Shown in pieces: positions 1,106 through 39,037 of a stretch of 39,037 nt of DNA (positions within the stretch are counted from its first letter, which is position 1; each line of letters opens with the position of its first letter). Origin of the DNA: a virus (Duplodnaviria; Heunggongvirae; Uroviricota; Caudoviricetes). Below the pieces are notes generated by a model. The model had not been told where the DNA came from. It searched no databases and worked only from the letters and a program-made list of their open reading frames with translations. A program made the translations under genes and the position numbers. The stretch spans positions 1-39,037 of the IMG/VR virus record IMGVR_UViG_2778261428_000004; one strand, 5' to 3'.

Positions 1106-3751
1106 TCAACCATTTAGTGTTAACTTTAATAATTTTTCCAGATTATTAATCTTTGATGTGATATTGGCAATATCCTGCTCATGGTGATGATATAATGCGC
1201 TCATTGCCAGAAACATTAACTCGTCATAGCGCACTGATAATTTTCTTCCTGATTCCACAATTAACCTTACTTCACCAGTTTCATACTCTTCTTCCTCTGT
1301 GATTTCATCATACTGACCAGACTCTTCATCAATTAAAATTTTTCTGGTCACATTTCTTGTTGCATAGACTTTCTCATACTCATCATCCCACTCTTCATAG
1401 CAAAGAACCCCATAAGAAAATGCATCAAGCCCCTCAGATTCAAAGATGGATTGTATATCTTGCGCAATTACACCGATATGCTCACGCGCTGACAAGCCTT
1501 TTTCTTTTACAGCATCCTTCATTCTGAATTTTTTTATCAGCGGGTAAATAGCCATTCCAACCCGTAGTTCTGCATCAGATAATGAAGCTTCATCCTGCTT
1601 GTAATTTCTGTCGCTGGTTACAATGGGGCTATTATTTATATACAGGTTTCTGACAGTATTCGACTGTGTACCAATATCATAAAGATTTGAACCTGATGGT
1701 CGAAAATGACCTAATTCTGTTAATACCCATCTGTCACGCAAGCCGTCAATCTCTCCCATGGTTCCAAAGTAGAAAGCAACCGGGATATTGTCTCCGGAAG
1801 GATTACCTCTTGTGACGCATTTAATGTGTGCGCATTGCACAGCCTTACTACCTGTATCACCGGCCCATACATGAGTACCCAATACATCCCCTGTCTGCAG
1901 AGCTCCAAAATTATCAGTTGATACAACACCAGAGCGAGACTTATACATTATTGCTCTTGGTCCTTCTGCGGTGTCTGACTGATGCCGGGAAACCCATGAG
2001 TTGCTCATCCCTTCCGTGCCGTTTGAAGCTAACTGCATTCCACCAGTAATTCCGCCATCAAGAAACAATATAGGGTTATCCCGGTTAGTTTGAATACCCT
2101 TTCTTGTTGGCCAAACTGTCCAGTGAAAAGTATCATTGTATTCCCTTACTCCATATTTGAACTCCGGGGAGCCAGAACTATGAAGACCAGTATTACTGGA
2201 TACAGAACGGCTTGCTTTGCTTTGCACTACCGAACCAGACCTGCCTATATCAAACAGATATACATTTTTCCCGTTCTCAGCAACTCCTTTATATGTGCAT
2301 ATTCCCAGCGTTAAAACATACCCACTCTCCGTTCTAATTACTGTTAGGGACTCAGGCTCTTTATAAACAGGAGTTCCTGTACTGTCAGATTTTGCTTCAT
2401 CATCACCAACAGTTGAAATATCTACTCGCTCAATAAACCTGCCTGTTAAGTCAAATACGTAAATATAATTAGTCATGCCAACATACGTATGTGACTCAAG
2501 TATGTAAATGTATGCCCCATCGCAAGCAATTGATTGGGTAAATGCTTCTTGTGATGGTTTTTGATAGCTAAACTCAACTAAATAATCATCACTATAATCA
2601 GTTTTATGAGATCTGTTATTCCACATGCTGACTATGTCGAAAACACGAACCGTGCAGGTAATTCCATCCGATGAAATTTTCTTGGCAAGTAGATAGTTTT
2701 CACAACTTGATACAGTTGGAGTAGAGCTTGCGCTCATTCCATCATAGGGGAACAACTTCCAGGTGATAAAACCTTCAGATACCCCGTTGGTTGTCCCTGT
2801 GTAACTCAATATATTTTCCATCGAAATACATTGATTGGCGGCATCGGTTCCATAAGGCTTCGATGTCCACAGCACGACAGTACCATCAGGATTATGATGC
2901 AATCCAAGCCCCTGATGCCCAAGTTCAGTAGAACGGGTTCTGTCGTATCTTCCTAGTTCACCAGAATTCGTCACGTCAAAGGCATTAATGCAATAACCGT
3001 ATGCTGTGGTAGATGATAAAGTAAAAATCTTGTCGTTAATTTCATCATAACAACACCCCTGAATGACCGCATATAAACCACCCGCACCTTCAGTTCTGCG
3101 CAACGTGTGTCTGGTGTTATATACTTTTGGCATTCCGGAAAATATCAATGGCTCTCTTTTATCTCTTAATTTAAGATCACCAATCGCAATTCGTTTACTG
3201 CCATCACGAATAAAAGAACCATTTATATAGCTATTTTCAATAAAACTTTTAGTAACAAAAAATGCTCTTCCACTTAAATCAATAACCCTATTTTTTATAT
3301 CCATTTCCAACGCGACAAATGCTTCAGTATCATCGCTAATCCCATCCCCCTTAGCTCCAAAATAAAGAGGAGACATATTTAGCATATCATTTGATAATAC
3401 TTTTTGTTTAAACTGATCCGGGTCGTACTTCAACACATTCGGAAAATAAAACTGCTGCGAACCATACGCATCATATACAGCCATAGAATGGCCTTGCACA
3501 GTTACGAATTTGGCAATCTGTCCGTTATATACCGGATACCCGCCAGCGTTAATGATGATTGGCTGTGCAACAGGAACGTGAGAACCGTCTTCATTCTCTA
3601 CATAAACCTGAATCTGGTTTTCAGGATTTACCGGGTCAGTGTCAATTTTTCCGATATAAATTTTGCCATTGGCAACCGCTTTAAAAGAACGCGCCATAGT
3701 GAAGAGTTGCGAAGGCATGCTTACCACAACATTTGCGGTGATATCTGACAT
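1106..3751 (-). CDS. Tailspike: P22-type N-terminal head-binding domain, divergent central receptor-binding/depolymerase-like domain, C-terminal intramolecular chaperone (peptidase S74-like) domain
   Basis: Start taken at internal ATG 3751 ([11 protein letters not shown]...) with GGAG 7 nt upstream. The first ~115 aa closely match P22 gp9 as recalled. The C-terminal ~130 aa resemble the autocleaving chaperone domain of endosialidase/T5 L-shaped fibre proteins. [14 protein letters not shown] is a beta-helix-type motif. Confidence 0.85.
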
Positions 3752-3872
3752 TTCATTGCTCCAGACGAATGATATGATGCAACCATGATGTGATTGCATA
3801 CCGAAATGGTACTATTGAGTATTTATCCAGTAGGTTACGATGCCATTCCACCCAACTGGTGAGGCATCAAGG
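3752..3872. promoter_or_regulatory. Divergent intergenic region between tailspike and mnt starts; candidate Pmnt / remnant Pant-operator region
   Basis: 121-bp gap between divergent start codons. By analogy with P22 immI this would hold the mnt promoter and Mnt operator, but I could not identify the operator with certainty. Confidence 0.3.
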
Positions 3873-4139
3873 ATGTACAGCAAATACGATGAGGCGCAGT
3901 TTCACTTGAGACTTCCGCATGAACTCCACGCGAAAATTAAGCAGCGTGCGAAGATGAATAACAGATCGCTGAACTCAGAGATAATTGCAGCGATTGAAGA
4001 ATCGTTGGCTAAACAAAGCTCTGCATCCGTTTACATTGATGATGCAGAGCGTATGGCAGAACAACAATCTGATATGGTTAAGAAAATGGTATTTGAAACG
4101 CTTAAGACCATGTATAGCAATAATAAAAAGGAAACATAG
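3873..4139 (+). CDS. mnt: Mnt-family ribbon-helix-helix repressor (P22 immI Mnt homolog)
   Basis: Sequence RLPHELHAKIKQRAKMNNRSLNSEII...DDAERMAEQQSDMVKKMVFETLK aligns with P22 Mnt as recalled. Start taken at internal ATG 3873 with AAGG upstream. Confidence 0.8.
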   Translation: MYSKYDEAQFHLRLPHELHAKIKQRAKMNNRSLNSEIIAAIEESLAKQSSASVYIDDAERMAEQQSDMVKKMVFETLKTMYSNNKKET

Positions 4140-4209
4140 AAATCTAGTTTCCGGCTAAAATGGCATTGCCTTCATGCTATCCTGTGAAAAACTAAGGAGA
4201 GTTAACCAT

Positions 4210-4695
4210 ATGAAAAAATCACTGTTAATTATCCCGCTTCTGCTGGTTGGATGCGCAAAAGTAAGTGACTATCAAGCAAGTTGCGAACAACGCTATCCAA
4301 AGCTTAGCGATATGGCTAATTGTCTTGATGCCAGTGTGAAGAACGACTCACGCATGGCATCAGCACCAACACCTAAGCTGTATGTCCTTGCTGCAAAGAT
4401 GCTCGGGCAAGGTGTCGATGAAGGCAAGATAAGTGACGCACAGGCAAGACTTGAGCTTCAGAATCTTTATGTTCAATTACAAAGCCAAGAACAAGCCCAA
4501 CAAATAGCACAAAGCCAAGCATTCCAGCAGGCTTTATTGAATTATCAGGCTGTAAACACAATGCAAGCGATCGAGCAAAAAGCGCGCCAGCCTGTTATAA
4601 CTCAACCTTACCCAACACGCGTTGACACATATACAAACTGCAATTCAGGATTTGGAAACACGGTAACATGCAACAGTAGCAGTAACATCAGATAA
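4210..4695 (+). CDS. Putative lipoprotein of unknown function (signal peptide plus lipobox LVGC), Gln-rich
   Basis: Start at ATG 4210 with AAGGAG 6 nt upstream. MKKSLLIIPLLLVGCAK is a classic SPII signal/lipobox. It occupies the sieA/immI position between gp16 and the tailspike. Confidence 0.65.
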   Translation: MKKSLLIIPLLLVGCAKVSDYQASCEQRYPKLSDMANCLDASVKNDSRMASAPTPKLYVLAAKMLGQGVDEGKISDAQARLELQNLYVQLQSQEQAQQIAQSQAFQQALLNYQAVNTMQAIEQKARQPVITQPYPTRVDTYTNCNSGFGNTVTCNSSSNIR

Positions 4696-4785
4696 CAATC
4701 AGCAAAGGTATCGCCTATGCAGATGGATACGATAAACCTCGCGTTCTACATATTTGGTTTTTGCACGTTCCTGGTGTTTGAAAGG

Positions 4786-6783
4786 CTATTCTGACAATGC
4801 ATCAGACTTAGCCCCCTGCGTCATGGCGTTAATGGCCTTTTGTGCCTGCTGCATGGCTTTCTCGAACGCTGTTGATCCGCGTGGGGTGTTTGCCATTCGG
4901 AGCATTGCATTTCTGAATGGCTCGCTCTCATAGGCGCGAGTAAGAAGTCCGTAGCTTACCGCTGCGCCAGTTGTCGCAGGGTTCATTGCTGTCCCATATC
5001 CGATAATGAACGGGATGGTTTGCTGCCCTGTTGGTGTTGTTACTGCCGCTTTTGCAGCCTGCTGCGTGGATTGCAGGTAGTTTTTCAATCCTTTCAGATA
5101 AGCGGCTTCCTGACCTTTAAATGTGATGCCAGTCTGGTTTTGCAGGATGTTAAGCTGCCGAAGGAACTGGTCAGGGGAACCACCTGATTTCTCCATCGCC
5201 TTTCCAATGATGCCATTGCGCATTTGCGCCCTGCCAACACGACCAACTGAGTTATACAGAGTCTTAATTTCCGATTTGTTCTTGCTGAATAGCATGTTGT
5301 TGACAACTTCCGGCGTCAGGTCGCCTTTCATGAGAACATTCTTCAGCCTGGTATTCTTTAGTTTCGCCGCTTCGTCAGCGTAGACGGCATTGGCCTGCTG
5401 ATATTTACGAAGAGTATCGTTGCCAAGATTCTGACCAATGGCACCATTGATATCGTCGGTCATCGCCTTGTAAACACGTTGAATGGCGGCATCGGAACGG
5501 TTTGGTAACACTGGTCGCTCCCCCTTCACGTCCATTCTGAACTGGCTGCGCAGATCGCTTAATTGCTTCAAATCCAGATTAACCGGACCATCAGGGCCAG
5601 CATTGCGAACAAGCTCATCACGATATGACTGAAGTTTTGAAATTGTCTCGTTATCAGCTACCTTACCAAGCTTCTGCAGATTAGATATTTCTGTATCAAT
5701 CTGCTGAATTGCTCGCGCAGGCTGAATGTTTACTCCAGCCATAGCATTCTGAACCTGCTCCAGTCGATTACCGGCGGCACGACGAATTCCTGATGTTTTC
5801 GCTTTAAGGCTGTCAATAACAACCGCTGGATCATACTCACCGAATTTATCGGCAAATCTCTGCACCAACTGGCTTCTCGCTTCCTGTTGCGTTGCTCTCA
5901 TTCCGCTTGTGCCAGCCAGAGGGATATTTTCTGCTGTAGTCTGCGCCATTTTTCCGACGCGGGAAGTGGGTTGTAACAGGTCTGTGGTGTGCAGAGGAAC
6001 TCCTTCACGCTCTGCAAATCTGATAGCCTGCTGCGCTTCTGGCGCAATAGCACCACGAACGCCACGATAAGCAGCACCTAATCCACGCCCGGCAGCGTTA
6101 ATAGCAGCGCCAGCAAGTACACCAACGCCTAAATCGGTGGCGAGTGCTTCCGCATCATCTTTCGCACTATTTGCAGCAAGTGATCCAACTGCGTTTTCTG
6201 CTAGAAGGCGAGTTGCCCCCTGAGCAATTCGACCAGCAAGTGTTGGTGCCTGTACCGCCGCTCTCTCAACGCCAGCAGGAGTGAGGTAAGGCAATGCTTC
6301 AGCAAATACCTTTCCCTCTGTCGTTTGTGGAGTCAGCGCACCTTGCTGAAGGCCAAAGTCCTGCTCTAATCCCTGCGTTGTTACTCGTGGTGCTGGTTGA
6401 TATGTACCATCGCCAATACCGAGTTTACCGCCAGCCCAAGCCGCCGCGCTTGTTACAGCATCGGCAACTGATGCAGGTATGTTTGCCACGTTCACGCCAG
6501 CCTGCACCATTCCGCGACCAGTCTCTTTTACTGCTTCGCCAAGATCAGACATAAATCCACTTTGCTGTGGTTGTTGCTGTGCTACTGGTTGCTGTGTCTC
6601 CACTGACTGCACAAATGGCAATGGATAGGCAGCATAGAAAGCTTGCTTAGCCTGCTCTGCATTTTCTCCGGCTTGCGGGGCCACGACTTCATTGAAGTAT
6701 TGCTCCTGAGCCTGCGCTTTTTGTTCTGGTGCTAACGCCTGATACTGTGGAGAGGCGATAACATCTTTCCATGCTTTAGCCAT
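4786..6783 (-). CDS. Ejection (internal virion) protein, P22 gp16-like
   Basis: Position last in the 7-20-16 ejection protein series; long Ala/Gly/Gln-rich protein. Assigned by synteny with P22. Confidence 0.7.
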   Translation of the reverse strand: MAKAWKDVIASPQYQALAPEQKAQAQEQYFNEVVAPQAGENAEQAKQAFYAAYPLPFVQSVETQQPVAQQQPQQSGFMSDLGEAVKETGRGMVQAGVNVANIPASVADAVTSAAAWAGGKLGIGDGTYQPAPRVTTQGLEQDFGLQQGALTPQTTEGKVFAEALPYLTPAGVERAAVQAPTLAGRIAQGATRLLAENAVGSLAANSAKDDAEALATDLGVGVLAGAAINAAGRGLGAAYRGVRGAIAPEAQQAIRFAEREGVPLHTTDLLQPTSRVGKMAQTTAENIPLAGTSGMRATQQEARSQLVQRFADKFGEYDPAVVIDSLKAKTSGIRRAAGNRLEQVQNAMAGVNIQPARAIQQIDTEISNLQKLGKVADNETISKLQSYRDELVRNAGPDGPVNLDLKQLSDLRSQFRMDVKGERPVLPNRSDAAIQRVYKAMTDDINGAIGQNLGNDTLRKYQQANAVYADEAAKLKNTRLKNVLMKGDLTPEVVNNMLFSKNKSEIKTLYNSVGRVGRAQMRNGIIGKAMEKSGGSPDQFLRQLNILQNQTGITFKGQEAAYLKGLKNYLQSTQQAAKAAVTTPTGQQTIPFIIGYGTAMNPATTGAAVSYGLLTRAYESEPFRNAMLRMANTPRGSTAFEKAMQQAQKAINAMTQGAKSDALSE

Positions 6784-8180
6784 TAATCACCCCATAGTGA
6801 AGAAAAGTTACTGCTGGCTGCTGGCTGTGATACCTGTGCAGGTTGAGATTGCTGCCGCTGAGATTTACCAACATTAACGTTATATTGTTGGTTGTAATTG
6901 TTGGTGTATTCCTGAATCTCACGAATCGACTGCTGCATAGCCTCCGGGCTTGAATAGTCAACCTGCGGCATCCCCTGAAAATACATCTTCGCTTCTGCAA
7001 CGGTGTTAATACCACTGGCACCCATGTCCCTTGCTGCCGCCACACCCTGATTCTGCATTCTGCCCTGAATACGTTGTGCTGAGTTATATAACTGGCGCTG
7101 CTCTTTTCCCGTTAATCGGCTGCGAACATCAGCACCAATTGCTGGATTACCTGCACCGCCTGTCATTCCTGTCATGAAATCGAGAGCAGAAGCGTCTGCA
7201 TTTGCGATCGCGTCGATATCCTTCTTCATGGCATAGTTTTGTGCTGATGCAGACGATGTTGCCGGCGCAGCGATTGAACTGGCAGGAACGCGAACCATAT
7301 TCCCCTCGTTGTCGATGCCTTCGTAGAACGCATTAGCCCCAGCGCCGTGAAGCTTCCCGCCTACCGTTACAGTTCTGCCATCTGATAACTGAACTGTACG
7401 CTCATCATTCCCAGCAGTTCCTCTTGTTGACGATCGCTGCATTGCCAAATCCTGACCGCGTCGTGCAGTAGAAGCAGATAAATCCTGACCGCGCATCGTG
7501 ATGTTCTGACCACGCGCTGTTAGTGCTTCTCCAGCCTGATTGCTGCGGATTGTCTCTGCCAGTCTGCCTCGGTCAATTTCACGACCAGCCATCTTGTCCT
7601 GAACAGCAAACGCCTTTTCTGGCCCAAGTGCACCGAGAGACATAGTAGTCAGCATGTGTGATAGCTGCTCTGGATTCTGGATACCTGTCTGAATCATCCA
7701 GTCAGCATTCGCCCCCACGCGATTTAACCTGTCCTTGTTGTCAGTAATGAATTTACTGTAGGCTTCCGGTCCCTGAGAAAGAGCGACGTTAGCCCTCATG
7801 GCTAAATCGCCCATATCGTTGCGTTGCTGCTCATTAAGACCGGAAAACGCCTGTTGTGCCTGCGCAACAAACGCTGGATTTTCCTGGGCAAACTTAAATA
7901 GTCCCGATGGATCACCAGAAGCCCATGCATCAGCGTGAACCTTATTGAACGCACTAATAGCTTTCTGTTGCTGTTCCTGATTGTAAATATCAGCAACTCC
8001 AGCCAGACCACGTAACGCGGTCAGACCAACGTTATTTGCACCTGAGCGAGCCAGTTCATTGTTTTCGCGGATCAGACCAAGCGTTGCGTTAATGTCGCTT
8101 GCCTTTGGCGCATTCTCATTTTGCGTACCGATGCCAGCCAGAAAACCACCAGAATTAATACCCTGTTGCCACGTAGCCAT
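6783..8180 (-). CDS. Ejection protein, P22 gp20-like
   Basis: 465 aa against 471 aa for P22 gp20; synteny between gp7 and gp16. Confidence 0.7.
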
Positions 8181-8189
8181 GATTACCCC

Positions 8190-8885
8190 TTAAAACAACG
8201 AGCCAAGCAGACCAAGACCGCCACCAACAGCGGCACCAATACCAGTACCAATACCAGGAACAATGCTGCCAAGTTGTGCTCCAGCAATTGCTCCAGAGGC
8301 AGCCCCGCCTATTGCAGATTGAAGGCCGGAAGGTCTATTAGCGTTTGCCGCCGCCAGTGCCGCGCTTTGCTGTGAAATCTGGCTCATGTTGTTGGCATAT
8401 GTTTGCCCGGCGTTTGCCTGTCCCTGAAGAGCGCCAAGACCAATATTTGCCAGATTCTGGTAGTTGTTCATTTGTCCAGATAGCCATTGCTGGCCAAGAG
8501 TTGGTGCGATTGTTGCTAACTGATTACTGGTTGCGGTGGAACCTAATCCACCTGTTGCTTCCGCTGCCGCCAGACTCTGATAGCGCGCCTGACCAGCAAG
8601 GTCTTTGTACTGCTGAGAGTTGTAATACTGGTTAAGCGCCTGACCTTGCCCCTCCAGAGACGATAAGTTCTCGAGGCTGCCGACATACTTCTCAGCCAGA
8701 GGAGTAAACGGTTTCAGGTTGTTCATGATGGTGTTGAACTGCTGATTTTGCAGGTCTGCGGCATACTTCTGAGCTTCTGCTGCATACTTTGCGCTTTTAT
8801 CAGAGCTGCCACCTTTCCCGCCTTTTTCAGGGCAATAAGGTTCCTCGCCGCGCAGTTTTCTGCCCAGCTTAAATGCATATAACAT
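8190..8885 (-). CDS. Ejection protein, P22 gp7-like
   Basis: 231 aa; N-terminus MLYAFKLGRKLRGEEP and Gly/Ala-rich C-terminus as in P22 gp7 as recalled; synteny. Confidence 0.75.
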   Translation of the reverse strand: MLYAFKLGRKLRGEEPYCPEKGGKGGSSDKSAKYAAEAQKYAADLQNQQFNTIMNNLKPFTPLAEKYVGSLENLSSLEGQGQALNQYYNSQQYKDLAGQARYQSLAAAEATGGLGSTATSNQLATIAPTLGQQWLSGQMNNYQNLANIGLGALQGQANAGQTYANNMSQISQQSAALAAANANRPSGLQSAIGGAASGAIAGAQLGSIVPGIGTGIGAAVGGGLGLLGSLF

Positions 8886-8887
8886 GG

Positions 8888-9343
8888 CTATCTCCCGTGA
8901 TTCAGGAAGTCGATTAGTTCTTCGCGTGTGGCGCTGTAAAACGTCACGTCATCCACGCCTTTGAAGTATTTCTTGATGGTTCCTACTCGCTTAAGGCCAA
9001 TCATTGCGCAGTACATCTGACCGTGGCGGAATTTGCGCGCAGCGAACGATGTGACGCACTGAACGGTGGTGTTAGTCAGAATGTATCGCCAGAACGCCAG
9101 CCCGATTTCCTTGCTGAATCCACGAACCTCTGGCAGGTACATGGCGTGGCAATCAAAGGTCAAAGGCTGAATCTCCTGATAGTAAACAATGCCGCCGAAC
9201 TGCCCGTGCACGTTCACCTCAAAGTAACGGCATTCAGGCTTGTAGTCGTATCCATCACCGTTGTTGCTCCCGGCAATAATGTCAGGGTGATTTCCGACAG
9301 CTTCGATCAGGTCGATGTTTCGCGTTGGTTTGAATGTAATCAT
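8888..9343 (-). CDS. Virion assembly protein, P22 gp14-like (by synteny)
   Basis: Located between tail needle gp26 and gp7 exactly as P22 gene 14; the sequence was not independently recognised. Confidence 0.55.
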   Translation of the reverse strand: MITFKPTRNIDLIEAVGNHPDIIAGSNNGDGYDYKPECRYFEVNVHGQFGGIVYYQEIQPLTFDCHAMYLPEVRGFSKEIGLAFWRYILTNTTVQCVTSFAARKFRHGQMYCAMIGLKRVGTIKKYFKGVDDVTFYSATREELIDFLNHGR

Positions 9344-10044
9344 CAGTCAATCAGCCCATGTAATCTAAGTGCCGTTTCAAGCGCCAGAATACGCTGCCGC
9401 GCCTGCTGCAAACCTGTAGCGAGAGCCGCGACTTCGGATTGTGTGTACGTAGTGCCGACCGTGTATGACTGGTTAGCGTTGAATGAGCCAAGAAGTGGCG
9501 TACCTGTGGCTGCAGTCCATCCGGTATTTCTTGCTCCAACAACCTGAATTCCATCAACTGAATATGATGTTTTTACATCCAGCGGTGATGCAAGAGACTG
9601 CGATTCGGTTACGGTTTTCGATACGTAATCACTCTTAATGTCAGATACATCGCTTTCTACGCCATCCAGTCTTTGGTCAACAGTGACCAGATGCCCCTGA
9701 ATATCGATAACCTCATCCAGCAAGTAATCAACATCGCTACGCAGTACGACTATCTTCCCTTCGGCAGTTGTTAACCTGACCTCAAGGAGATTTATCGCTT
9801 TTGTGTTTGCGGTGATTCTTGCATCGTGGTCAGCCAGTTCGACGTCCTGTTCATCGTTTTTTACCTGGGCATCGTAAGCGCCCTGACCAGCCTGATTTGC
9901 CTTCCCGGCAATTGCGCCGACATCAGCCCCCTGATTAATGACATACAGCAGGTAAGACTGGCTGAAGATATTGCGTGGAAGGATTGATGTATCGAGCCGC
10001 GTCGCCTGAACAATAACCGGTGTGTTGAGATTCGAATCAGCCAT
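9343..10044 (-). CDS. Tail needle protein, P22 gp26-like
   Basis: Start at internal ATG 10044 ([18 protein letters not shown]...), overlapping the gp10 stop. Strong match to P22 gp26 including C-terminal ...[12 protein letters not shown]. Confidence 0.85.
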
Positions 10045-29935: not shown

Positions 29936-29976
29936 CATCAGCAGGACGCTGGAAGCCAAACGGAACAGATTGGCAG

Positions 29977-30017
29977 GCTCTTTAACATTGATGGGATTGT
30001 CCCGCCGAAATGCGGGA
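29977..30017 (+). promoter_or_regulatory. nutL (boxA GCTCTTTAACA plus boxB hairpin CCCGC-CGAAAT-GCGGG)
   Basis: Same boxA/boxB sequences as nutR, about 110 nt upstream of N. Confidence 0.65.
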
Positions 30018-30124
30018 ACCAAAGAGTAGTTGGCTTTGGGGTGACGTGAAGTGCAGCTGCACGACGGCAACCGGAAGATAAGCACCCGGCGCGTCACCGC
30101 CAAAGTCAATCATCGGAGGTCAAC

Positions 30125-30430
30125 ATGACAGTAGTCATTACATATCTGGCTGACGATAACGCCAGAAATCGCCGCAGAGCACGCAGACAGGCTCAACGTG
30201 AACAGGCAATGCAAGAACAGCGACTGGCGCGAAAGATTGCGCTAAAGCTCTCTGGTTGCGTCAGAGCAGACAAAGCAGCATCACTCGGAAGCCTTCGCTG
30301 CAAGAAGGCAGAAGAAGTCGAGCGTAAACAGAACCGTATTTACTACCGCAAGCCACGCAGTGAAATGGGTGTTACTTGTGTTGGTCGCCAGAAAATGAAA
30401 TTAGGCAGCAAACCACTGTATGAGGGGTGA
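30125..30430 (+). CDS. N: Antitermination protein N-like (arginine-rich motif)
   Basis: N-terminal ARM DDNARNRRRARRQAQREQ; position between pL/nutL and the early-left genes. Confidence 0.8.
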   Translation: MTVVITYLADDNARNRRRARRQAQREQAMQEQRLARKIALKLSGCVRADKAASLGSLRCKKAEEVERKQNRIYYRKPRSEMGVTCVGRQKMKLGSKPLYEG

Positions 30431-31209: not shown

Positions 31210-31214
31210 GCACT

Positions 31215-31242
31215 GTGTATTCATTCCAACGAGTGAATACAC
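31215..31242 (+). repeat. 12-bp-stem inverted repeat (GTGTATTCATTC / GAGTGAATACAC)
   Basis: Seen directly, immediately after the 62-aa ORF stop; no T-tract follows. Confidence 0.5.
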
Positions 31243-31304
31243 GGAGCAATGTCGCTCGTAACTAAACAGGAGCCGACTTGTTCTGATTATTGGAAATCTT
31301 CTTT

Positions 31305-31330
31305 GCCCTCCAGTGTGAGGGCGATTTTTT
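31305..31330 (+). terminator. Rho-independent terminator within early-left operon (tL-like)
   Basis: GCCCTC-CAGTGT-GAGGGC followed by GATTTTTTAT. Confidence 0.6.
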
Positions 31331-31350
31331 ATCTATGAGGATATGAATAG

Positions 31351-31719
31351 ATGTCAAACATCAAAAAATACATCATTGATTACGACTGGAAAGCGTCAAT
31401 AGAAATTGAAATCGACCATGACGTAATGACAGAGGAAAAACTTCACCAGATTAATAATTTCTGGTCAGACTCTGAATACCGACTCAATAAACACGGCGCT
31501 GTATTAAATGCTGTATTAATCATGCTGGCGCAACATGCTCTGCTTATAGCAATTTCGAAAGACTTAAATGCATATGGTGTTGTTTGTGAGTTCGACTGGG
31601 ATGATGGAAATGGTCAGGAAGGATGGCCTCCAATGGATGGTAGTGAAGGAATAAGAATTACCGATATCGATACATCAGGAATATTTGATTCAGATGATAT
31701 GACTATCAAAGCCGCCTGA
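31351..31719 (+). CDS. Hypothetical strongly acidic protein (122 aa)
   Basis: GAGGA SD; many Asp/Glu, especially in the C-terminal third (DWDDGNGQEGWPPMDGSEG...DSDDMT). Confidence 0.55.
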   Translation: MSNIKKYIIDYDWKASIEIEIDHDVMTEEKLHQINNFWSDSEYRLNKHGAVLNAVLIMLAQHALLIAISKDLNAYGVVCEFDWDDGNGQEGWPPMDGSEGIRITDIDTSGIFDSDDMTIKAA

Positions 31720-31794
31720 GCGCGGCTTTACCGCATACCAATAATGCTTCACGAGAGGCATTTTCGTTATGCAATCAAATATAAGGAGTTACCC

Positions 31795-32320: not shown

Positions 32321-33028
32321 ATGGATTTGAATAAATTCGATGAGCCATTCAGCCCTGAAGATATTGAATGGCGAATACAGCAAAGTGGTAAAACACGCGA
32401 TGGCAAAGTGTGGGCTATGGTGCTGGCTTATGTCACGAACAGGGCAATCATGAAACGCCTGGACGATGTTTGTGGCAAAGCAGGATGGCGTAATGAATAC
32501 CGCGATATTCCCAACAACGGCGGCGTTGAATGCGGCATATCAATAAAGATTGATTCCGAATGGGTAACCAAATGGGATGCTGCTGAAAACACGCAGGTAG
32601 AAGCCGTCAAAGGTGGTCGTTCCGGTGCAATGAAGCGTGCTGCCGTTCAGTGGGGAATCGGTCGGTATCTGTATAACCTTGAGGAAGGTTTCGCACAAAC
32701 ATCTCTCGATAAAAAGCAGGGATGGCACAGGGCAAAACTGAAAGATGGGACAGGATTTTACTGGCTCCCTCCATCGCTGCCGGGATGGGCAATACCAGCA
32801 TCAGATAACAAACCATCACCAGAAAATACCAACCAGAAATCTCCATCGGTTGACTGCGAACAAATCCTGAAAGACTTCAGCGATTATGCGTCAACAGAAA
32901 CTGACAAGAAAAAACTCATCGAGCGTTATCAGCATGACTGGCAATTAATGGCTGGCAATGAGGATGCGCAGGCTAAATGCGTTCAGGTAATGAACATCAG
33001 AGTTAACGAACTAAAACAGGCGGCATAA
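32321..33028 (+). CDS. Rad52/Sak-family single-strand annealing protein
   Basis: KRAAVQWGIGRYLY motif characteristic of the Rad52/Sak family; GAGGTG SD. Confidence 0.7.
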   Translation: MDLNKFDEPFSPEDIEWRIQQSGKTRDGKVWAMVLAYVTNRAIMKRLDDVCGKAGWRNEYRDIPNNGGVECGISIKIDSEWVTKWDAAENTQVEAVKGGRSGAMKRAAVQWGIGRYLYNLEEGFAQTSLDKKQGWHRAKLKDGTGFYWLPPSLPGWAIPASDNKPSPENTNQKSPSVDCEQILKDFSDYASTETDKKKLIERYQHDWQLMAGNEDAQAKCVQVMNIRVNELKQAA

Positions 33029-33544
33029 ATGGCAAGCAGAGGCGTAAATAAGGTGATCATTATTGGTCGCCTTGGGCATGATCCAGAAATCAGATATTCA
33101 CCATCAGGAACGGCATTTGCAAACCTTACAGTTGCTACGTCAGAACAATGGCGTGATAAGCAAACTGGAGAGCAAAAGGAGCAGACGGAGTGGCACCGTG
33201 TGGTAATGAGCGGGAAACTGGCAGAAATTGCCAGCGAATATCTGCGAAAAGGCTCTGAGGTTTATCTTGAAGGCAAATTGCGGACAAGAAAATGGCAGGA
33301 TCAAAGCGGACAGGATCGGTTCACTACCGAAGTCATAGTGGGCGTTGGTGGAACCATGCAAATGCTTGGTGGCAAGCAAGGAGGCAATGAACAGTCTTCA
33401 CCTCAGCGAAATGACGGTCAGCAACAAAGACAACAACATCAGCAGCAAGGGAATCACAGCGAACCACCTATGGATTTTGACGACGATATCCCCTTTGCAC
33501 CAGTAACTCTCCCTTTCCCTCGTCACGCTATTCACGCAATTTAA
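33029..33544 (+). CDS. ssb: Single-stranded DNA-binding protein SSB with 15-aa extension beyond the canonical DDDIPF tail
   Basis: [23 protein letters not shown]...TEWHRVV...[12 protein letters not shown] closely parallels E. coli SSB; the ORF continues [15 protein letters not shown]. Confidence 0.9.
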
Positions 33545-33552
33545 GGACTTAC

Positions 33553-34101
33553 ATGAATCACTTGATGGTTGACCTTGAAACAATGGGCAACGGGCCATAC
33601 GCGCCAGTTATTTCTATTGGGGCGGTATTCTTTGACCCGAATACCGGAGAAACAGGAGAAGAGTTCTCGGTAAATATCTCGCTTGAGTCATCAATGCGAT
33701 ATCGAGCGCGTCCTGACGCTTCAACGATTTTATGGTGGATGGAACAGAGTGAAGAAGCCAGAAAATCGCTAACCAGCAACACTCAGGAGCTTTCAACGGC
33801 TCTTTCATGGTTATCTGAATTCATCATAAAGAACGCCAACCACAAACTCGTTCAGGTTTGGGGGAATGGAGCATCATTTGACTGCGTTATTCTCCGCAAC
33901 AGTTATTCGCTGACAGGGCAGCCAGTTCCGTGGCAGTGGTGGAATGACCGCGACGTAAGAACAATCGTCGAACTTGGGAAGATAATAGGATTCGACCCTA
34001 AGCGAGATATGCCATTCAAAGGAATTCGCCACAACGCGCTTGATGATGCCATTCACCAAGCCAAATACGTTTCAGCGATCTGGAAAAAGTTAGCTAAATA
34101 A
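33553..34101 (+). CDS. DEDD-type 3'-5' exonuclease (DnaQ-like fold)
   Basis: MVDLETMG (Exo I motif), later FDCVIL and HNALDDA (Exo III-like) motifs. Confidence 0.65.
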   Translation: MNHLMVDLETMGNGPYAPVISIGAVFFDPNTGETGEEFSVNISLESSMRYRARPDASTILWWMEQSEEARKSLTSNTQELSTALSWLSEFIIKNANHKLVQVWGNGASFDCVILRNSYSLTGQPVPWQWWNDRDVRTIVELGKIIGFDPKRDMPFKGIRHNALDDAIHQAKYVSAIWKKLAK

Positions 34102-34117
34102 TCAACAGGAGAAAACC

Positions 34118-34411
34118 ATGCCAGCGCCTCTGTATGGTGCGGATGACCCGCGCCGCTGTTCCGGCAATTCCGTATCGGAGGTGCTGGATAAATTCAGAAA
34201 AAACTACGACCTGATAATGTCGCTACCGCAGGAAACGAAAGAGGAAAAGGAATTTCGCCATTGTATATGGCTTGCAGAGAAAGAAGAACGCGAGCGAATT
34301 TACCAGACATCAATCCGACCATTCCGCAAAGCCACATATACCCACTTCCCTGAAATTGACCCGCGCCTGCGTAATTACCGCTCACGCTATGGCGCTATCA
34401 GTAATGACTGA
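34118..34411 (+). CDS. Hypothetical protein (97 aa)
   Basis: AGGAG SD before ATG. Confidence 0.5.
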   Translation: MPAPLYGADDPRRCSGNSVSEVLDKFRKNYDLIMSLPQETKEEKEFRHCIWLAEKEERERIYQTSIRPFRKATYTHFPEIDPRLRNYRSRYGAISND

Positions 34412-34421: not shown

Positions 34422-34712
34422 ATGAAAACAATGAAGCTAAACATCGACCTCGGCAAATACGTTATTACCGGGACCAAACACGACCTGATTCTTAGCGAAA
34501 GAGGAATTATCAAAGAAGGCGAGAATGCAGGGAAAGAAACACTAAGTCGTATCGGTTATTACAGCAAGTTTGAGCATCTGGTTAAAGAGTTATGCAACCG
34601 TGAAATTCTGTTATCTCAAGCGCGGACGCTACAGGATATTCAGCAGCATATCGAGACTTTAGGTGTGTCACTTAGCATGGCTGTTGACCAGTTCGTGGAG
34701 AGTAAATCATGA
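34422..34712 (+). CDS. Hypothetical protein (96 aa from ATG 34422)
   Basis: GAGG SD; internal start within a longer ORF. Confidence 0.5.
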
Positions 34713-34876
34713 GAGGACTTGCATACAATCCCGGCATTCTTCCGGCAGAAATGATTATTCGCCAACGCGTAAAGCCAATGCCACCGAGAGAGGAATTGCT
34801 TAAGAGAAATTCTTTTCCTTCAGTGAATCAAAACAAATATCTGAATGCGATGTGGCGTAAAGGAGGCAACCAGTGA
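34709..34876 (+). CDS. Hypothetical protein (55 aa)
   Basis: Not in the ORF track; start overlaps the upstream stop and stop overlaps the next start. Confidence 0.35.
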
Positions 34877-35226
34877 GCGAAATTAATTACCAGGCACTGC
34901 GTGAAAAAGCAGAGAAAGCAACGTGTGGTGTGTGGTCGCTCGAATATGGAGAGGGCCGATTTGATGGTGATGATGCACTAATTCATCGCGAGGCTGCTGG
35001 ATATATTCCCATTTGCAGAATTGAAGGAGCGCATCCAGAAAGCGGTTTCGATGAAGATTTCCAAATGGAACAGCAGGCCAATGCTGAATTCATCGCCGCA
35101 GCCAATCCGGCTACTGTGCTGGCACTACTGGATGAAAACGAAAGACTGTGTCGCGAGCTGATAGCTCGTAATGGTGAGATTGAAGGGCTTCGGAAGTGGG
35201 CAGAAGAACGGGAGATGCAACCATGA
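34873..35226 (+). CDS. Ea22/Ead-like protein (short paralog)
   Basis: GTG start with AGGAGG SD; motif [23 protein letters not shown] is shared with the next gene. Confidence 0.55.
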
Positions 35227-36152
35227 TGACTTTTACCAGCGAACAATTAGCTACCTTACGTAAGATAGCGCAACAGGCAACACAGGGCGAATGGCGTGCA
35301 TTCATCTCGCCGGACACTGGTACATATGCGGTGCATACGCCGGGGGATGAACGTTGCGGAGACATTATCAAATGGCCTGGCTTTGACGACCAGAAAAATG
35401 CAGAGAACAACGCAGAATTTATCGCAGCTTTCAACCCTAAATTAGTGCAGACACTGCTGGATGAACGGGAAAGAAACCAGCAATACATCAAATCACGCGA
35501 CCAGGAGAACGAGGATATTGCGCTAACGGTAGGGAAGCTGCGCGTTGAGCTTGAGGAGGTGAGAGCAAAACTCAATGAACAACGCGAGTATTACGAGGGA
35601 GTAATCGCGGATGGAAGTAAGCACATAGCAGAACTGGAAAAACAATGCGCCGAATGGGAGCGAAAAGCATTAAGCAACTTTGAAGAGTGTGCTGCGATGG
35701 CTGAACGTATCGAAGAGATGCAGACAAAATCTGCACCAGATTCGTTTGGCATCATCGGTGAAAATATTCGAACACAGGATAATCGAATAACGTCAGATCC
35801 TATGTTTTGTGTGTATCAAAAGCGCGAAATCGTTGTTGATGCTGATTATGACTATGACCGGATTGTCTGGGTTGATGAAGATGGCAATGAAGCCAATAAA
35901 CTCCAAAGTCGTCGTCTCGAACTACTTCATGAAAACTTTCGGGAGCCACCAGAAAAATGGCGGCGCGTTGCTGTGAAAGATATTGATGAATTCGTTACCT
36001 GCTGTTTCACCGAACAGGGTTGTAAAGACTACCTGGCAGCCAATGGTCACAATCTTCGCTTGCCATTTATATATGTAAAAAGCGGTTTCAGGAACGCTGA
36101 ATATATCGGCATAAGAAACTGGCTTGCTGGTATTCGCATCAAAGGAGACTGA
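35223..36152 (+). CDS. Ea22/Ead-like protein (long paralog)
   Basis: From ATG 35223: NAEFIAAFNPKLVQTLLDERERN repeats the motif of the upstream gene; coiled-coil-rich centre. Confidence 0.55.
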   Translation: MMTFTSEQLATLRKIAQQATQGEWRAFISPDTGTYAVHTPGDERCGDIIKWPGFDDQKNAENNAEFIAAFNPKLVQTLLDERERNQQYIKSRDQENEDIALTVGKLRVELEEVRAKLNEQREYYEGVIADGSKHIAELEKQCAEWERKALSNFEECAAMAERIEEMQTKSAPDSFGIIGENIRTQDNRITSDPMFCVYQKREIVVDADYDYDRIVWVDEDGNEANKLQSRRLELLHENFREPPEKWRRVAVKDIDEFVTCCFTEQGCKDYLAANGHNLRLPFIYVKSGFRNAEYIGIRNWLAGIRIKGD

Positions 36153-36153
36153 T

Positions 36154-36363
36154 ATGGCTATTGCCGCAAGTTACACCATGCATCTCTATTGTGATTGTCG
36201 CCAGTGTACGGAAGGTGTATATCCAGTGCCAGACTTCGGTGAGTATATCGGTACGTCATGGTCTGGTTGTGCAAAAGAGGCCCGTAAAGACGGGTGGCGA
36301 ATAAGCAAAGACAAAACACGTACTTTTGCGCCCGGGCATAAAGTTTTGAGGATTAACACATGA
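36154..36363 (+). CDS. Hypothetical Cys-rich small protein (69 aa)
   Basis: AAAGGAG SD before ATG 36154; CDCRQC...C pattern. Confidence 0.45.
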   Translation: MAIAASYTMHLYCDCRQCTEGVYPVPDFGEYIGTSWSGCAKEARKDGWRISKDKTRTFAPGHKVLRINT

Positions 36364-37133
36364 CCACTATTACCAAAGAACGTATTGAATTGTTCATTAA
36401 AAATCCGCTTGAAAACGGGCTTACTCGTGGCGAACAAATGGAACTGGCACGAATTGCACTGGCATCACTGGAACGCGAACTGATTCGCCACGAGCATGCC
36501 AAATGGTCTGACTCCACATTTGGCTGCGTTGGCCCCATTGGTCCACTGAAACACCTCTCAAAAGAGGCTCTGGAAGCCGCAGCCGAACCAGACGATCTCA
36601 GCGAGTGGGCTGATATGCATTTCCTGTTGTGGGATGCACAGCGCCGTGCTGGCATCAGCGATGCTGAAATTACCGCTGCTATGGAAGATAAATTGAAGAT
36701 CAACATGGAGCGCCAGTGGCCTGAACCAAAAGATGGTGAGCCTCGCTTGCACATTAAAGAACCCGGCAACTCTCCGGTAATTCCGGATGGTTTATCCACG
36801 GTATGCGCTGAGGCTTATCAGGTTGTAGGAGTTATGGCAGATGCGCTTGGTGTATTCGGTGATGCAGCAGTACAGAAAGTTCTGGATAACCTGTCACAGC
36901 AAAAACTTGTTCACAGAGATGTGCTGCCGTTCTCGCTTCCGGTAACTCCGGATGGTTGGATAAGCTGTAGTGATCGAATGCCGAACGACGCGCAGTGGTG
37001 CGTAGTGAACACAGAATACGGGTATTACGTGCAATGCTGGTCTGAAGGTCAAGGGTGGCTTGGTGATGATATCAGCATCCCTAAATGCGATGTAATCAAT
37101 TGGATGCCTCTACCAGAACCGCCGCAGGGGTGA
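36360..37133 (+). CDS. DUF550 (MazG-like NTP pyrophosphohydrolase-like) plus DUF551 two-domain protein
   Basis: The C-terminal WISCSDRMPND...INWMPLPEPP resembles the standalone DUF551 gene at 19060-19275. Confidence 0.55.
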   Translation: MTTITKERIELFIKNPLENGLTRGEQMELARIALASLERELIRHEHAKWSDSTFGCVGPIGPLKHLSKEALEAAAEPDDLSEWADMHFLLWDAQRRAGISDAEITAAMEDKLKINMERQWPEPKDGEPRLHIKEPGNSPVIPDGLSTVCAEAYQVVGVMADALGVFGDAAVQKVLDNLSQQKLVHRDVLPFSLPVTPDGWISCSDRMPNDAQWCVVNTEYGYYVQCWSEGQGWLGDDISIPKCDVINWMPLPEPPQG

Positions 37134-37199
37134 AATGATGCTTGGCCTGAAGTATTTTATGTAATTGGTATTGCTATATTTTTATCTGGGGATAAACGA

Positions 37200-37442
37200 A
37201 TGTTCTCTCTGATTCAACGTGGTCAGATATACACCGATAGCGCTGGCTATCCAGTAAAAATCATTCGTAGTACTGATCACTCAGTATTCTTCAAGAGGAT
37301 GGATGGCTATCCTGGAAGAGTGTGCATCAGAAAATTCAATAATTTATTCGAACACATTGATCACAGAGAATATCACCAGATCCTGGCTGAAACAGAACAG
37401 GAGAACCATCTGAAAAAATTACGTGCTATGCAAAGGAGATAA
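37200..37442 (+). CDS. Hypothetical protein (80 aa)
   Basis: GGGGA SD. Confidence 0.45.
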   Translation: MFSLIQRGQIYTDSAGYPVKIIRSTDHSVFFKRMDGYPGRVCIRKFNNLFEHIDHREYHQILAETEQENHLKKLRAMQRR

Positions 37443-37522
37443 ACCGGTAAAGGTGTTCGCGATAAAGGTGAATATCGGCAATGAATAACAATCCTCGAAC
37501 TCGCGGGGATTTCTTTTATCTG

Positions 37523-37547
37523 AACTCGCTACGGCGAGTTTTGTTTT
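37523..37547 (+). terminator. Rho-independent terminator
   Basis: AACTCGC-TACG-GCGAGTT followed by TTGTTTT. Confidence 0.55.
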
Positions 37548-37560
37548 ATGGAGATGATAA

Positions 37561-37728
37561 ATGCACTTCCGAGTCACAGGTGAATGGAATGGAGAGCCAT
37601 TCGACAGGGTTATCGAAGCAGAGGACATCAACGACTGCTATAACCACTGGATGATATGGGCGCAGATAGCGCATGCAGACGTAACCAATATTCGAATTGA
37701 AGAACTGAAAGAACACCAAGCCGCCTGA
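37561..37728 (+). CDS. Hypothetical protein (55 aa)
   Basis: Not in the ORF track; GGAG SD; lies between two terminator hairpins. Confidence 0.35.
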   Translation: MHFRVTGEWNGEPFDRVIEAEDINDCYNHWMIWAQIAHADVTNIRIEELKEHQAA

Positions 37729-37742
37729 TGGCGGTTTTTTCT
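37719..37742 (+). terminator. Rho-independent terminator upstream of xis
   Basis: AAGCCGCC-TGAT-GGCGGTTTTTTCTT. Confidence 0.6.
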
Positions 37743-37767
37743 TGCGTGTAATTGCGGAGACTTTGCG

Positions 37768-37986
37768 ATGTACTTAACACTTCAGGAGTGGAACGCACGC
37801 CAGCGGCGCCCAAGAAGCCTTGAAACAGTTCGTCGATGGGTACGCGAGTGCAGGATATTCCCTCCTCCGGTTAAGGATGGAAGAGAGTATCTGTTCCACG
37901 AATCAGCGGTAAAGGTTGACTTAAATCGACCAGTAACAGGTAGCCTTTTGAAGAGGATCAGAAATGGGAAGAAGGCGAAGTCATGA
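37768..37986 (+). CDS. xis: Excisionase
   Basis: 72 aa, MYLTLQEWNARQRRPRSLETVRRWVRECRIFPPPVKDGREYLF..., essentially lambda Xis as recalled. Confidence 0.95.
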   Translation: MYLTLQEWNARQRRPRSLETVRRWVRECRIFPPPVKDGREYLFHESAVKVDLNRPVTGSLLKRIRNGKKAKS

Positions 37987-39037
37987 GCGCCGGGATTTAC
38001 CTCCTAACCTTTATATAAGAAACAATGGATATTACTGCTACAGGGACCCAAGGACGGGTAAAGAGTTTGGATTAGGCCGAGACAGGAGGATAGCAATCAC
38101 TGAAGCTATACAGGCCAACATTGAGTTACTCTCAGACAGCGGACGCAAATCACTGATAGACAGAATTAAAGGCGGTGACGCAATCACTCTTCATGTGTGG
38201 CTTGACCGATATGAAAGAATCCTCACCGAAAGGGGGATCAGGCCGAAAACTCTACTCGACTACGCCAGCAAAATCAGGGCAATCCGAAGAAAATTGCCGG
38301 ACAAACCGCTCACTGACATATCAACGAAAGAAGTGGCAGCAATGCTAAACACCTACGTAGCAGAAGGTAAAGCAGCTTCCGCAAAATTAATCAGGTCAAC
38401 CCTTGTTGACGTTTTTCGTGAAGCAATAGCCGAGGGGCATGTGGCAACGAATCCGGTAACAGCAACCCGTACAGCAAAGTCAGAAGTAAGGCGCTCAAGG
38501 CTGACAGCTAATGAGTATGTCGAGATTTACCATGCAGCCGAACCTCTCCCTATCTGGCTAAGGCTGGCGATGGATTTGGCCGTCGTTACAGGGCAGAGAG
38601 TCGGCGATTTGTGCAGAATGAAATGGTCAGACATAAACGACAACCATCTTCACATTGAACAGAGTAAAACAGGGGCTAAACTCGCCATTCCGCTAATGCT
38701 AACGATTGACGCGCTCAATATCTCATTGGCTGATACACTACAGAAATGCAGGGATGCCAGCAGCAGTGAAACTATAATCGCATCAAAGCATCACGATCCG
38801 CTTTCCCCGAAAACAGTATCAAAGTATTTTACAAAGGCGAGAAATGCATCTGGACTCTCATTTGATGGAAACCCGCCAACATTCCATGAACTGCGTAGCC
38901 TGTCAGCGAGGCTATACCGGAACCAGATTGGCGATAAGTTTGCTCAACGTCTTCTCGGGCATAAATCAGATTCAATGGCGGCGCGGTATAGGGACAGCCG
39001 TGGACGGGAATGGGACAAAATTGAAATCGACAAATGA
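37964..39037 (+). CDS. int: Tyrosine integrase, lambda Int-like
   Basis: 357 aa; MGRRRSHERRDLPPNLYIRNNGYYCYRDPRTGKEFGLGRDRRIAITEAIQAN... and C-terminal ...HELRSLSARLY...LLGHKSD...EWDKIEI match lambda Int as recalled; overlaps the xis end. Confidence 0.95.
   Translation: MGRRRSHERRDLPPNLYIRNNGYYCYRDPRTGKEFGLGRDRRIAITEAIQANIELLSDSGRKSLIDRIKGGDAITLHVWLDRYERILTERGIRPKTLLDYASKIRAIRRKLPDKPLTDISTKEVAAMLNTYVAEGKAASAKLIRSTLVDVFREAIAEGHVATNPVTATRTAKSEVRRSRLTANEYVEIYHAAEPLPIWLRLAMDLAVVTGQRVGDLCRMKWSDINDNHLHIEQSKTGAKLAIPLMLTIDALNISLADTLQKCRDASSSETIIASKHHDPLSPKTVSKYFTKARNASGLSFDGNPPTFHELRSLSARLYRNQIGDKFAQRLLGHKSDSMAARYRDSRGREWDKIEIDK

Follow-up and report, generated by a model that had tools for sequence, protein, structure and literature searches.

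The 39,037-bp stretch of DNA analysed here (positions 1 to 39,037 of IMG/VR virus record IMGVR_UViG_2778261428_000004; the window) represents, with a probability that we put at about 90%, the greater part of a natural, temperate prophage of the P22-like kind in a draft E. coli-type genome, built as a typical lambdoid mosaic of separately circulating modules. Its temperate-phage gene set looks complete and is carried in reversed orientation relative to the conventional map: the late genes, from the tailspike (1106-3751) through Q (21387-22010), are on the - strand, followed on the same strand by the nin, replication and cro/cII genes, while cI, N, the early-left genes, xis and int (37964-39037) are on the + strand. 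The lambdoid order of int-xis, early-left recombination genes, N, cI-cro-cII, O-P, nin, Q, S-R-Rz and virion genes is present, and eight cassettes are 90-99.5% identical to lambda in amino acid (aa) sequence. The virion genes pair one-to-one with those of P22, in the same order and with 33-99% aa identity, and their products were assigned to the Pfam families GP3_package, Terminase_6N/6C, P22_portal, Phage-scaffold, P22_CoatProtein, P22_Tail-4, Phage_stabilise, P22_gp7, Inj_translocase and Phage_P22_gp16. With both this syntenic virion set and a P22-type tailspike anchor present, the window is a P22-like (Lederbergvirus-type) lambdoid phage.

Identity to lambda, P22 and natural coliphages

An earlier, sequence-only reading of the window had proposed a mosaic of lambda-identical and P22-identical blocks. 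BLASTN and TBLASTN comparison with lambda (NC_001416) and P22 (AF217253) confirmed that the mosaic is real but gave the identical blocks a much smaller share. Computed in 100-nucleotide (nt) windows at a threshold of ≥95% identity, 9.4% of the window matches lambda (R, S, Q, ninB, ninE/F, ea10, xis and int codons 1-55), 10.6% matches P22 (mainly the ATPase half of TerL, TerS and orf80, but also the 3′ part of Rz with Rz1) and 17% matches either, leaving 83% below the threshold for both. Identical bases over the window amount to 12.5% for lambda and 35% for P22.

The genes ninB, ninE, ninF, Q, S and R did prove near-identical to lambda, as had been supposed. Identities are 99.5% aa and 97% nt for Q, 99.1% and 99% for S, 98.7% and 95% for R, 98.7% and 98% for NinB, 94.5% and 96% for NinF, and 90% and 95% for NinE; Ea10 is 97.5% identical in aa. 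The same supposition for int and xis was correct for xis (98.6% aa, 96% nt) and for int codons 1-55, but int as a whole is of HK022 type, with 72% nt and 74.9% aa identity to lambda. Rz is 60.5% identical to lambda Rz in aa. Stretches 94-99% identical in nt to P22 occur only at 17236-18926, in the 3′ two-thirds of Rz together with Rz1, and as small patches. By aa identity to P22, TerS (99.4%), orf80 (98.8%), TerL (92.6%), gp10 (92.6%), gp14 (92%), gp7 (91.5%) and gp20 (90%) rank above scaffold (85.2%), portal (77.7%), coat (73.1%), gp26 (60.3%), gp4 (59.2%) and gp16 (33%). Near-identity to P22, claimed for terminase and a series of virion genes, thus applies to TerS and the 5′ 60% of TerL and loosely to gp10 (85% nt), but not to portal, scaffold, coat, gp4 and gp26, which are 62-80% identical in nt. 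The immunity, replication and recombination genes and the tailspike body were rightly described as unlike both phages; cI is 43% identical in aa to that of lambda and 40% to that of P22, and the primase-helicase has no match in lambda or P22.

Seven other natural coliphages, together with a prophage remnant of E. coli GMF054, were then used to paint the window in 250-nt bins. The seven coliphages jointly cover 78% of the window at ≥95% identity, and 89% is covered when the GMF054 remnant is included. Each lambda-like cassette is about equally or more similar in HK022, HK620, HZ41, IME10, mEp043, mEpX2 or APC_JM3.2, and S is 99-100% identical in all seven painted coliphages. Lambda and P22 were not themselves the partners in the exchanges. 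No single parent was found, since coverage of either half of the window stays below 80% in every phage record and every complete E. coli genome. Partial matches to the window were nonetheless present in 3524 and 4787 of the 5426 E. coli genomes; the number of matching places per genome has a median of 2 and reaches 14. The window is thus a new combination of common parts and no new phenomenon. The best values for identical bases per window, for what is a partial genome lacking about 1.2 kb or more, are 51% for HZ41, 50% for IME10 and 47% for APC_JM3.2; the nucleotide yardsticks of the International Committee on Taxonomy of Viruses are about 70% or more genus-wide and 95% or more for a species. 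With no record covering ≥80%, the window does not belong to an existing species.

Position of the homology joints

Breakpoints, taken as clustered ends of high-scoring segment pairs of ≥90% identity to nine phages (n = 72), lie close to gene boundaries. Of these, 57% fell no more than 30 nt from the start or stop of a gene, compared with 12.6 ± 3.8% of random positions (maximum 25% in 2000 trials), and the median distance from breakpoint to gene boundary was 21 nt vs 168 nt at random. Several intragenic joints sit near domain boundaries, as in the tailspike, TerL, Int and O, and that of Rz lies just upstream of Rz1. Block structure and joint positions are in this sense direct observations.

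A joint in the tailspike after the head-binding domain had been anticipated and was found, with all phage homology beginning at 3400-3411 (codon 114-117), the end of that domain, and with identity to GMF054 changing there from 100% to ∼90%. In P22-like phages tailspike residues 1-115 are conserved and the bodies are unrelated (PMC2629481). The TerL joint is seen against P22 as 5-11 mismatches per 30 nt below 17220 and 0 above 17250; it falls at codon ∼291-301, within the inter-domain linker between Terminase_6N (57-302) and Terminase_6C (318-470), and HZ41, IME10 and APC_JM3.2 stay 96-100% identical across it. At the int joint there are, up to 38129, 0-5 mismatches per 30 nt to both lambda and HK022, and from 38160 there are 7-15 to lambda but 0-3 to HK022, Pfam Arm-DNA-bind_1 corresponding to Int residues 1-68. 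HK022 stays 92-100% identical (250-nt bins) across this joint except for one 30-nt patch, 38130-38159 (+; int codons 56-65), which differs from lambda (9 mismatches) as well as from HK022 (10 mismatches) and has HK022-like flanks. Such a patch represents a third allele or else a short tract of conversion, located at the linker between the arm-binding and core-binding domains. Over the whole gene int is 96% identical in nt to HK022 (100% of the gene) vs 72% to lambda, and xis is 98% identical to HK022.

The joint that had been placed inside Rz was likewise recovered. The first 31 residues are those of lambda Rz, 20010-20069 is of APC_JM3.2 type, and the sequence from 20009 downward is of HK022/P22 type. 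Rz1, embedded in Rz at 19777-19953 (-) and encoding 58 aa with a lipobox, is wholly inside the HK022/P22 stretch; the interacting C-terminus of Rz and Rz1 therefore travel together. The exact chimeric Rz protein occurs in at least 37 blocks of the collection, with varied neighbours. In one locus (L023, GCA_016645805.1, 5326-12459) the same 152-aa Rz is found beside a holin, endolysin and Q of other types and beside an HK97-like terminase/portal/protease/capsid module, and from this context it follows that single lysis genes move independently of virion type. In O the joint, at ∼27316 (codon 159), separates the N-terminal origin-binding domain from a C-terminal half that is inherited with the primase-helicase. 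Since the TerL joint and, but for the 30-nt patch, the int joint vanish when the right relatives are compared and the Rz chimera is widespread, these joints are old polymorphisms of the lambdoid pool rather than events specific to this genome. Natural domain swaps such as those in TerL, Int (arm/core), O, Rz and the tailspike can guide the design of chimeras.

Two kinds of border were distinguished. Borders at which identity falls from ∼97% to 65-77% occur in TerL, int, Rz and, in GMF054, the tailspike anchor, and are the pattern that recombination within diverged homologues would leave. Abrupt and total loss of similarity at a gene edge occurs at ninB/primase (24943), Q/ninH (22020), ninE/dam (23900) and in the tailspike (3400). 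A 77-nt linker upstream of ninB is conserved among phages with four different replication modules, as would be expected of a recombination anchor.

Source of the window and origin of the mosaic

Positions 1-13751 of the window are 100% identical to the end of whole-genome shotgun (WGS) contig NLZC01000021.1 (88,472 bp; GCA_002512515.1), with window position 1 located 1 nt from the contig end. The first gene, encoding a family-2 glycosyltransferase (GT2), is 5′-truncated because the window starts at the contig end. An exact look-up of the 881-aa tailspike also matched an independent Logan assembly of SRR3657356, which reproduces window positions 8-12039 exactly (12.0 kb). At the other end, the 35.0-39.0 kb block is 99.98% identical in one related locus (L016), and the S-R-Rz-g65-orf80-TerS-TerL-portal junction recurs, by gene order and product lengths, in three independent assemblies (L021, L024, L025). 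The window ends at the int stop codon, which places attL outside it. A complete, circularly permuted genome was considered and rejected, given the GT2 gene cut at position 1, the start of the window 1 nt from the contig end, and the presence in relatives of an att region and a 160-codon gene between int and GT2; the portion of the prophage missing from the window is ∼1.2 kb or more.

Pervasive mosaicism has been described for HK97/HK022, HK620, Sf6, epsilon34 and other P22-like phages, and P22-like phages have mosaic early regions and Q proteins 99% identical to lambda Q (references in PMC2629481, and PMC2629481 itself). In experiments with lambda, mosaics arose by relaxed homologous recombination through the action of Rad52-like recombinases, orf and rap (PMC3945230). 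The window encodes a Rad52-like annealing protein, a single-strand binding protein (SSB), an exonuclease, Abc2, NinB (lambda Orf) and RusA. We infer that blocks may have been swapped between co-resident phages and prophages by homologous or relaxed-homologous recombination, seeded in conserved cassettes and short linkers and probably helped by phage annealing and accessory functions like those encoded here (Rad52-like protein, NinB/Orf, RusA, Abc2). Non-homologous joins would also have happened, more rarely, and selection would have retained only joints between genes or between protein domains.

Some findings weigh against this interpretation. The abrupt joints (tailspike 3400, 24943, 22020) fit non-homologous joining plus selection equally well, and the mechanism is unreadable from one sequence. 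The independent copies that were compared cover the first 13.7 kb (12.0 kb in the Logan assembly), and a misjoin elsewhere is formally possible. There is no att site or host DNA in the window, and the chromosomal location discussed below is deduced from relatives.

A misjoin would mean that reads of two or more lambdoid prophages were joined through shared cassettes of ≥95% identity (Q-S-R, nin) during draft assembly. The short-read draft contig ends inside the prophage, and most E. coli genomes hold several lambdoid prophages with these cassettes; the gene order is nonetheless complete and non-redundant, with one copy per essential function, the lysis-to-portal junction recurs in the three assemblies cited above, and the 35.0-39.0 kb block and positions 8-12039 are reproduced elsewhere, so that an artefact of this kind was judged very unlikely. 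Identity changes sharply against P22 at ∼17235 (99% to 75%) and against lambda at ∼38130 and ∼20010, as a direct, recent recombinant of lambda-like and P22-like parents would display if the joints were its founding events. This, however, is not how the joints behave in other phages: HZ41, IME10 and APC_JM3.2 keep 96-100% identity over the TerL joint, HK022 keeps 92-100% over the int joint except for the 30-nt patch, and the exact Rz protein is widespread, once beside an HK97-like head module. Such a parentage is very unlikely indeed.

The sequence-only reading had also raised the question of an engineered or laboratory lambda-P22 hybrid, for instance of the lambda immP22 type, and blocks 94-100% identical to lambda (S, R, Q, ninB, xis) do share one molecule with blocks 94-100% identical to P22 (TerS, 5′ TerL, orf80, pac). 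Identity to the laboratory genomes is 94-99% rather than 100%, except for ∼400 nt of S that are equally identical in IME10, mEp043, APC_JM3.2 and HK620, and the share of the window below 95% to both genomes is the 83% given above. Classical lambda-P22 hybrids have a lambda backbone with P22 immunity, and the architecture found here is the opposite, with immunity of HK620 type instead of P22 type. Moreover, the source is a WGS contig, and independent natural assemblies with the chimeric Rz or with the eaA-xis-int block number in the dozens to hundreds. The source is thus natural, and a laboratory hybrid has a negligible probability. Taken together, these comparisons favour a natural lambdoid mosaic, one more natural combination of known lambdoid modules that adds no new principle. 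The lesson to be drawn is that where a sequence seems identical to lambda or P22, the usual reason is a cassette in circulation throughout the lambdoid pool.

Modules of the window

Coordinates of the features and of the lambda-like blocks within them are collected in Table 1.

Table 1. Features and lambda-like blocks of the window, ordered by position.
Feature	Position	Strand	Remarks
Family-2 glycosyltransferase, 5′-truncated	1-1059	+	Pfam Glycos_transf_2; phrog_22088
Tailspike receptor-binding body and C-terminal S74 intramolecular-chaperone domain	1106-3399	-	Pfam Peptidase_S74
Tailspike head-binding (anchor) domain, P22 type	3400-3751	-	Pfam Head_binding, E = 9e-67
Reduced 'ant moron' region	3840-4695	+	Arc/Mnt-like repressor 3840-4139; orf161 4210-4695
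gp16, gp20, gp7 (ejection), gp14, tail needle gp26, tail-machine gp10 and gp4, orf84	4786-12194	-	
Coat gp5, scaffold gp8, portal gp1	12239-16624	-	97-99% nt to HZ41/IME10/APC_JM3.2; Pfam P22_portal
TerL nuclease-domain half	16625-17235	-	73-77% nt to P22
TerL ATPase domain, TerS, orf80	17236-18926	-	Sole long P22-near-identical block, 94-99% nt
Rz spanin	19715-20173	-	Internal joint ∼20010-20070 (codon ∼35-55)
Lambda-like block: 5′ part of Rz, R, S	19904-21124		94-98% nt to lambda
R endolysin, S holin, late promoter region, Q	20170-22020	-	Pan-lambdoid cassette, 95-100% nt to lambda
Lambda-like block: late promoter and Q	21287-22020		94-98% nt to lambda
nin region: ninH, rusA, orf96, roi, ninF, ninE, dam, ninB, linker (24867-24943)	22007-24943	-	
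Lambda-like block: ninF, ninE	23561-23898		94-98% nt to lambda
Lambda-like block: ninB and upstream linker	24426-24943		94-98% nt to lambda
Replication: Toprim-DnaB primase-helicase and O-like initiator, mEp043/ES18 type	24944-27792	-	Pfam Toprim_2/DnaB_C, Phage_rep_O
Immunity, HK620 type: cII, cro (-); cI, hkaS-like gene, N (+)	27966-30430	-/+	Pfam Phage_CII, Cro, HTH_3+Peptidase_S24
ea10 (DUF2528); also a lambda-like block (94-98% nt)	31210-31771	+	96.8% nt, 97.5% aa to lambda; 99-100% to mEpX2
Recombination: Rad52-like annealing protein, SSB, Rv2179c-like 3′-5′ exonuclease, Abc2 anti-RecBCD	32321-34411	+	Pfam
Early-left accessory: DUF2737, two Ead/Ea22-like, orf69, EaA-like fusion, DUF4222	34709-37442	+	Pfam
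orf55, xis, int codons 1-55 (arm-binding domain); also a lambda-like block (94-98% nt, to ∼38129)	37485-38129	+	Common to lambda and HK022
Int core-binding and catalytic domains, HK022 type	38130-39037	+	

The genes between 4786 and 12194 are mostly 93-100% identical in nt to HZ41, IME10, APC_JM3.2 and HK620, with the exceptions of gp7, which reaches 90% at best, and gp20, which is 98-99% identical over less than half its length. Judged by its sequence, the virion module is that of the E. coli/Shigella branch of P22-like phages and not of P22 itself. Within the P22-near-identical block, TerS (18102-18590, -) is 98% identical in nt to P22 and contains the P22 pac 22-mer as an exact copy at 18302-18323 (-), including the pac core AAGATTTATCTG; a 12-bp P22 pac core is described in PMC10996546. 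Among the phage loci compared, the 22-mer is otherwise found only in P22 and APC_JM3.2. Over 200 nt of TerS that span the pac site (18280-18479), HZ41 and IME10 diverge by 9-19 mismatches per 40 nt, with neighbouring genes 97-100% identical, and this patch looks like a swap of packaging specificity within a gene.

A gap at 21124-21287 between the lambda-like blocks is without the lambda orf-64 region. The nin region is shuffled; its lambda blocks stop at gene boundaries, and the Pfam families RusA, ANT, Dam and NinB were assigned there; roi, orf96, rusA and ninH are 96-99% identical to HK022/HK620/HZ41. A Dam-type N6-adenine methyltransferase gene (23902-24447, -) lies between ninB and ninE, with a ∼22-nt overlap with the 3′ end of ninB; it is 97-98% identical in mEp043 and IME10 and absent from lambda, P22, HK022 and HK620. 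The replication module is 96-100% identical to mEp043, and APC_JM3.2 has only the primase-helicase and the C-terminal half of O.

The immunity region is 98-100% identical in nt to HK620, mEpX2 and HZ41, and the recombination module is 97-99% identical to mEpX2, HZ41 and IME10, with Abc2 94.8% identical in aa to that of P22. In the Rad52-like protein (32321-33028, +) the last 79 codons are 66% identical in aa to the C-terminus of P22 Erf, and the N-terminal Rad52 domain has no match in Erf; the boundary looks like a further domain-level joint. Among the early-left products, the EaA-like protein is a dATP/dGTP pyrophosphohydrolase-DUF551 fusion that is on record in 360 blocks of the collection.

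In all eight of the related loci shown, int is followed by torS, and the int-proximal 3.6-4.3 kb of the window are 99.2-99.98% identical to prophages with int directly before torS. The attB of HK022 is situated in the torS-torT interval, which is occupied in ∼5% of E. coli genomes by a prophage that rewires torCAD regulation (PMC6814406). By analogy with these relatives, the prophage is likely to be located at torS-torT, and a prophage at the HK022 site would be expected to alter torCAD regulation of its host (PMC6814406).

Closest known phages

The Lederbergvirus phages HZ41 (OM022251), IME10 (JF974339) and APC_JM3.2 (MG197996) have a portal-gp14 module 93-100% identical in nt to that of the window and also have lysis, Q and early-region parts in common with it. 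They differ in the tailspike body, the integrase (P22/cps-53 type or other) and partly in immunity or replication, and HZ41 and IME10 differ further in their other central patch of TerS, without the P22 pac 22-mer. P22 resembles the window in gene order, virion genes, TerS, the ATPase half of TerL, orf80, pac and, with 74% aa identity, the head-binding domain, but immI ant/arc, gtrABC and P22 int are absent from the window and the immunity, replication and recombination genes differ.

Lambda has the same regulatory layout as the window and an O N-terminus 49% identical in aa; it differs in showing no homology in head and tail, Red recombination or immunity genes, in being similar in replication genes only at the O N-terminus, and in an Int of another specificity type. 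HK022 has int and xis like those of the window, but is itself a siphovirus with HK97-like head genes. HK620 (AF335538), a P22-like coliphage treated as a lambdoid mosaic in the literature, has cI, cro, hkaS and operators 98-100% identical to those of the window and is 93-99% identical in Roi-rusA-ninH-Q, gp10, gp26 and gp14. Its terminase, portal, scaffold and coat are without a nt match to the window, and further differences lie in the tailspike body, the integrase, the replication genes and the type of Rz C-terminus and Rz1 (62-74% nt).

Glycosyltransferase and tailspike at the left end

Positions 1-3400, with GT2 and the tailspike body, which are inherited together, are the only rare part of the window: of 5426 complete E. 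coli genomes, just four carry this cassette at ≥95% identity. Two of them, E. coli GMF054 and E. coli C, have it at 99.6-99.7% identity and the other two, isolates from pigs, at 95%; in GMF054 it is joined to another allele of the head-binding domain, with ∼90% identity from nt 3400. Swapping of tailspike receptor domains is documented, and the recombination motifs of lytic-phage tailspikes are stated to be absent from Lederbergvirus prophages (PMC10408124). We tentatively suggest that the cassette could be a unit that moves between P22-like prophages and brings a new tailspike specificity together with a modification of surface polysaccharide that shields the lysogen from the same phage. As a practical lead, the rare tailspike and GT2 cassette may provide a new receptor specificity.

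In the tailspike the true start codon is at 3751, the exact 881-aa product being on record; an alternative start at ATG 3799, giving an open reading frame of 897 aa, was rejected when an exact-protein look-up returned no match. The anchor matches residues 1-115 of Sf6 gp14 and P22 gp9 in PDB, residues ∼680-860 match PDB entries 6eu4, 4uw8 and 3gw6, and the best phage match of the body is 38% aa identity, to phage Gally. The N-terminal 415 residues match phrog_8280, which is annotated as a tailspike with colanic-acid-degrading activity. S74 chaperone regions likewise occur in endosialidases, in the L-shaped fibre of T5 and in the phi29 appendage, and, given the C-terminal Peptidase_S74 region, the mature tailspike is probably self-cleaved.

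GT2 and the tailspike gene are convergently oriented, and GT2 is a candidate moron for O-antigen modification. Its start in E. coli GMF054 is 57 nt upstream of window position 1. The best PHROG match is phrog_22088, of unknown function (E = 2.8e-125), and matches to GtrB-like PHROGs are far weaker and partial (E = 8.6e-32 and 1.4e-10). A gtrABC cassette, that is, a three-gene operon beside attP, was considered and rejected, as there is a single GT2 gene 46 bp from the tailspike stop, and hence no gtrC there, and the upstream neighbour of GT2 in GMF054 is a hypothetical gene on the opposite strand and not gtrA.

The interval between the tailspike and gp16 holds only the Arc/Mnt-like repressor (Pfam Arc and Repressor_Mnt) and orf161 (phrog_6067, function unknown), without arc or ant. 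P22 sieA (164 aa) agrees with orf161 in position, orientation and size but has no detectable similarity to it, and orf161 was therefore rejected as a SieA homologue. In E. coli GMF054 (L003, 18590-30642) a decayed relative lies between torT and torS; it keeps GT2, the tailspike, the Arc-like repressor, gp16, gp20 and part of gp7, and an IS911 element takes the place of the remainder except for the final 219 nt of int, a stretch 100% identical to the window end.

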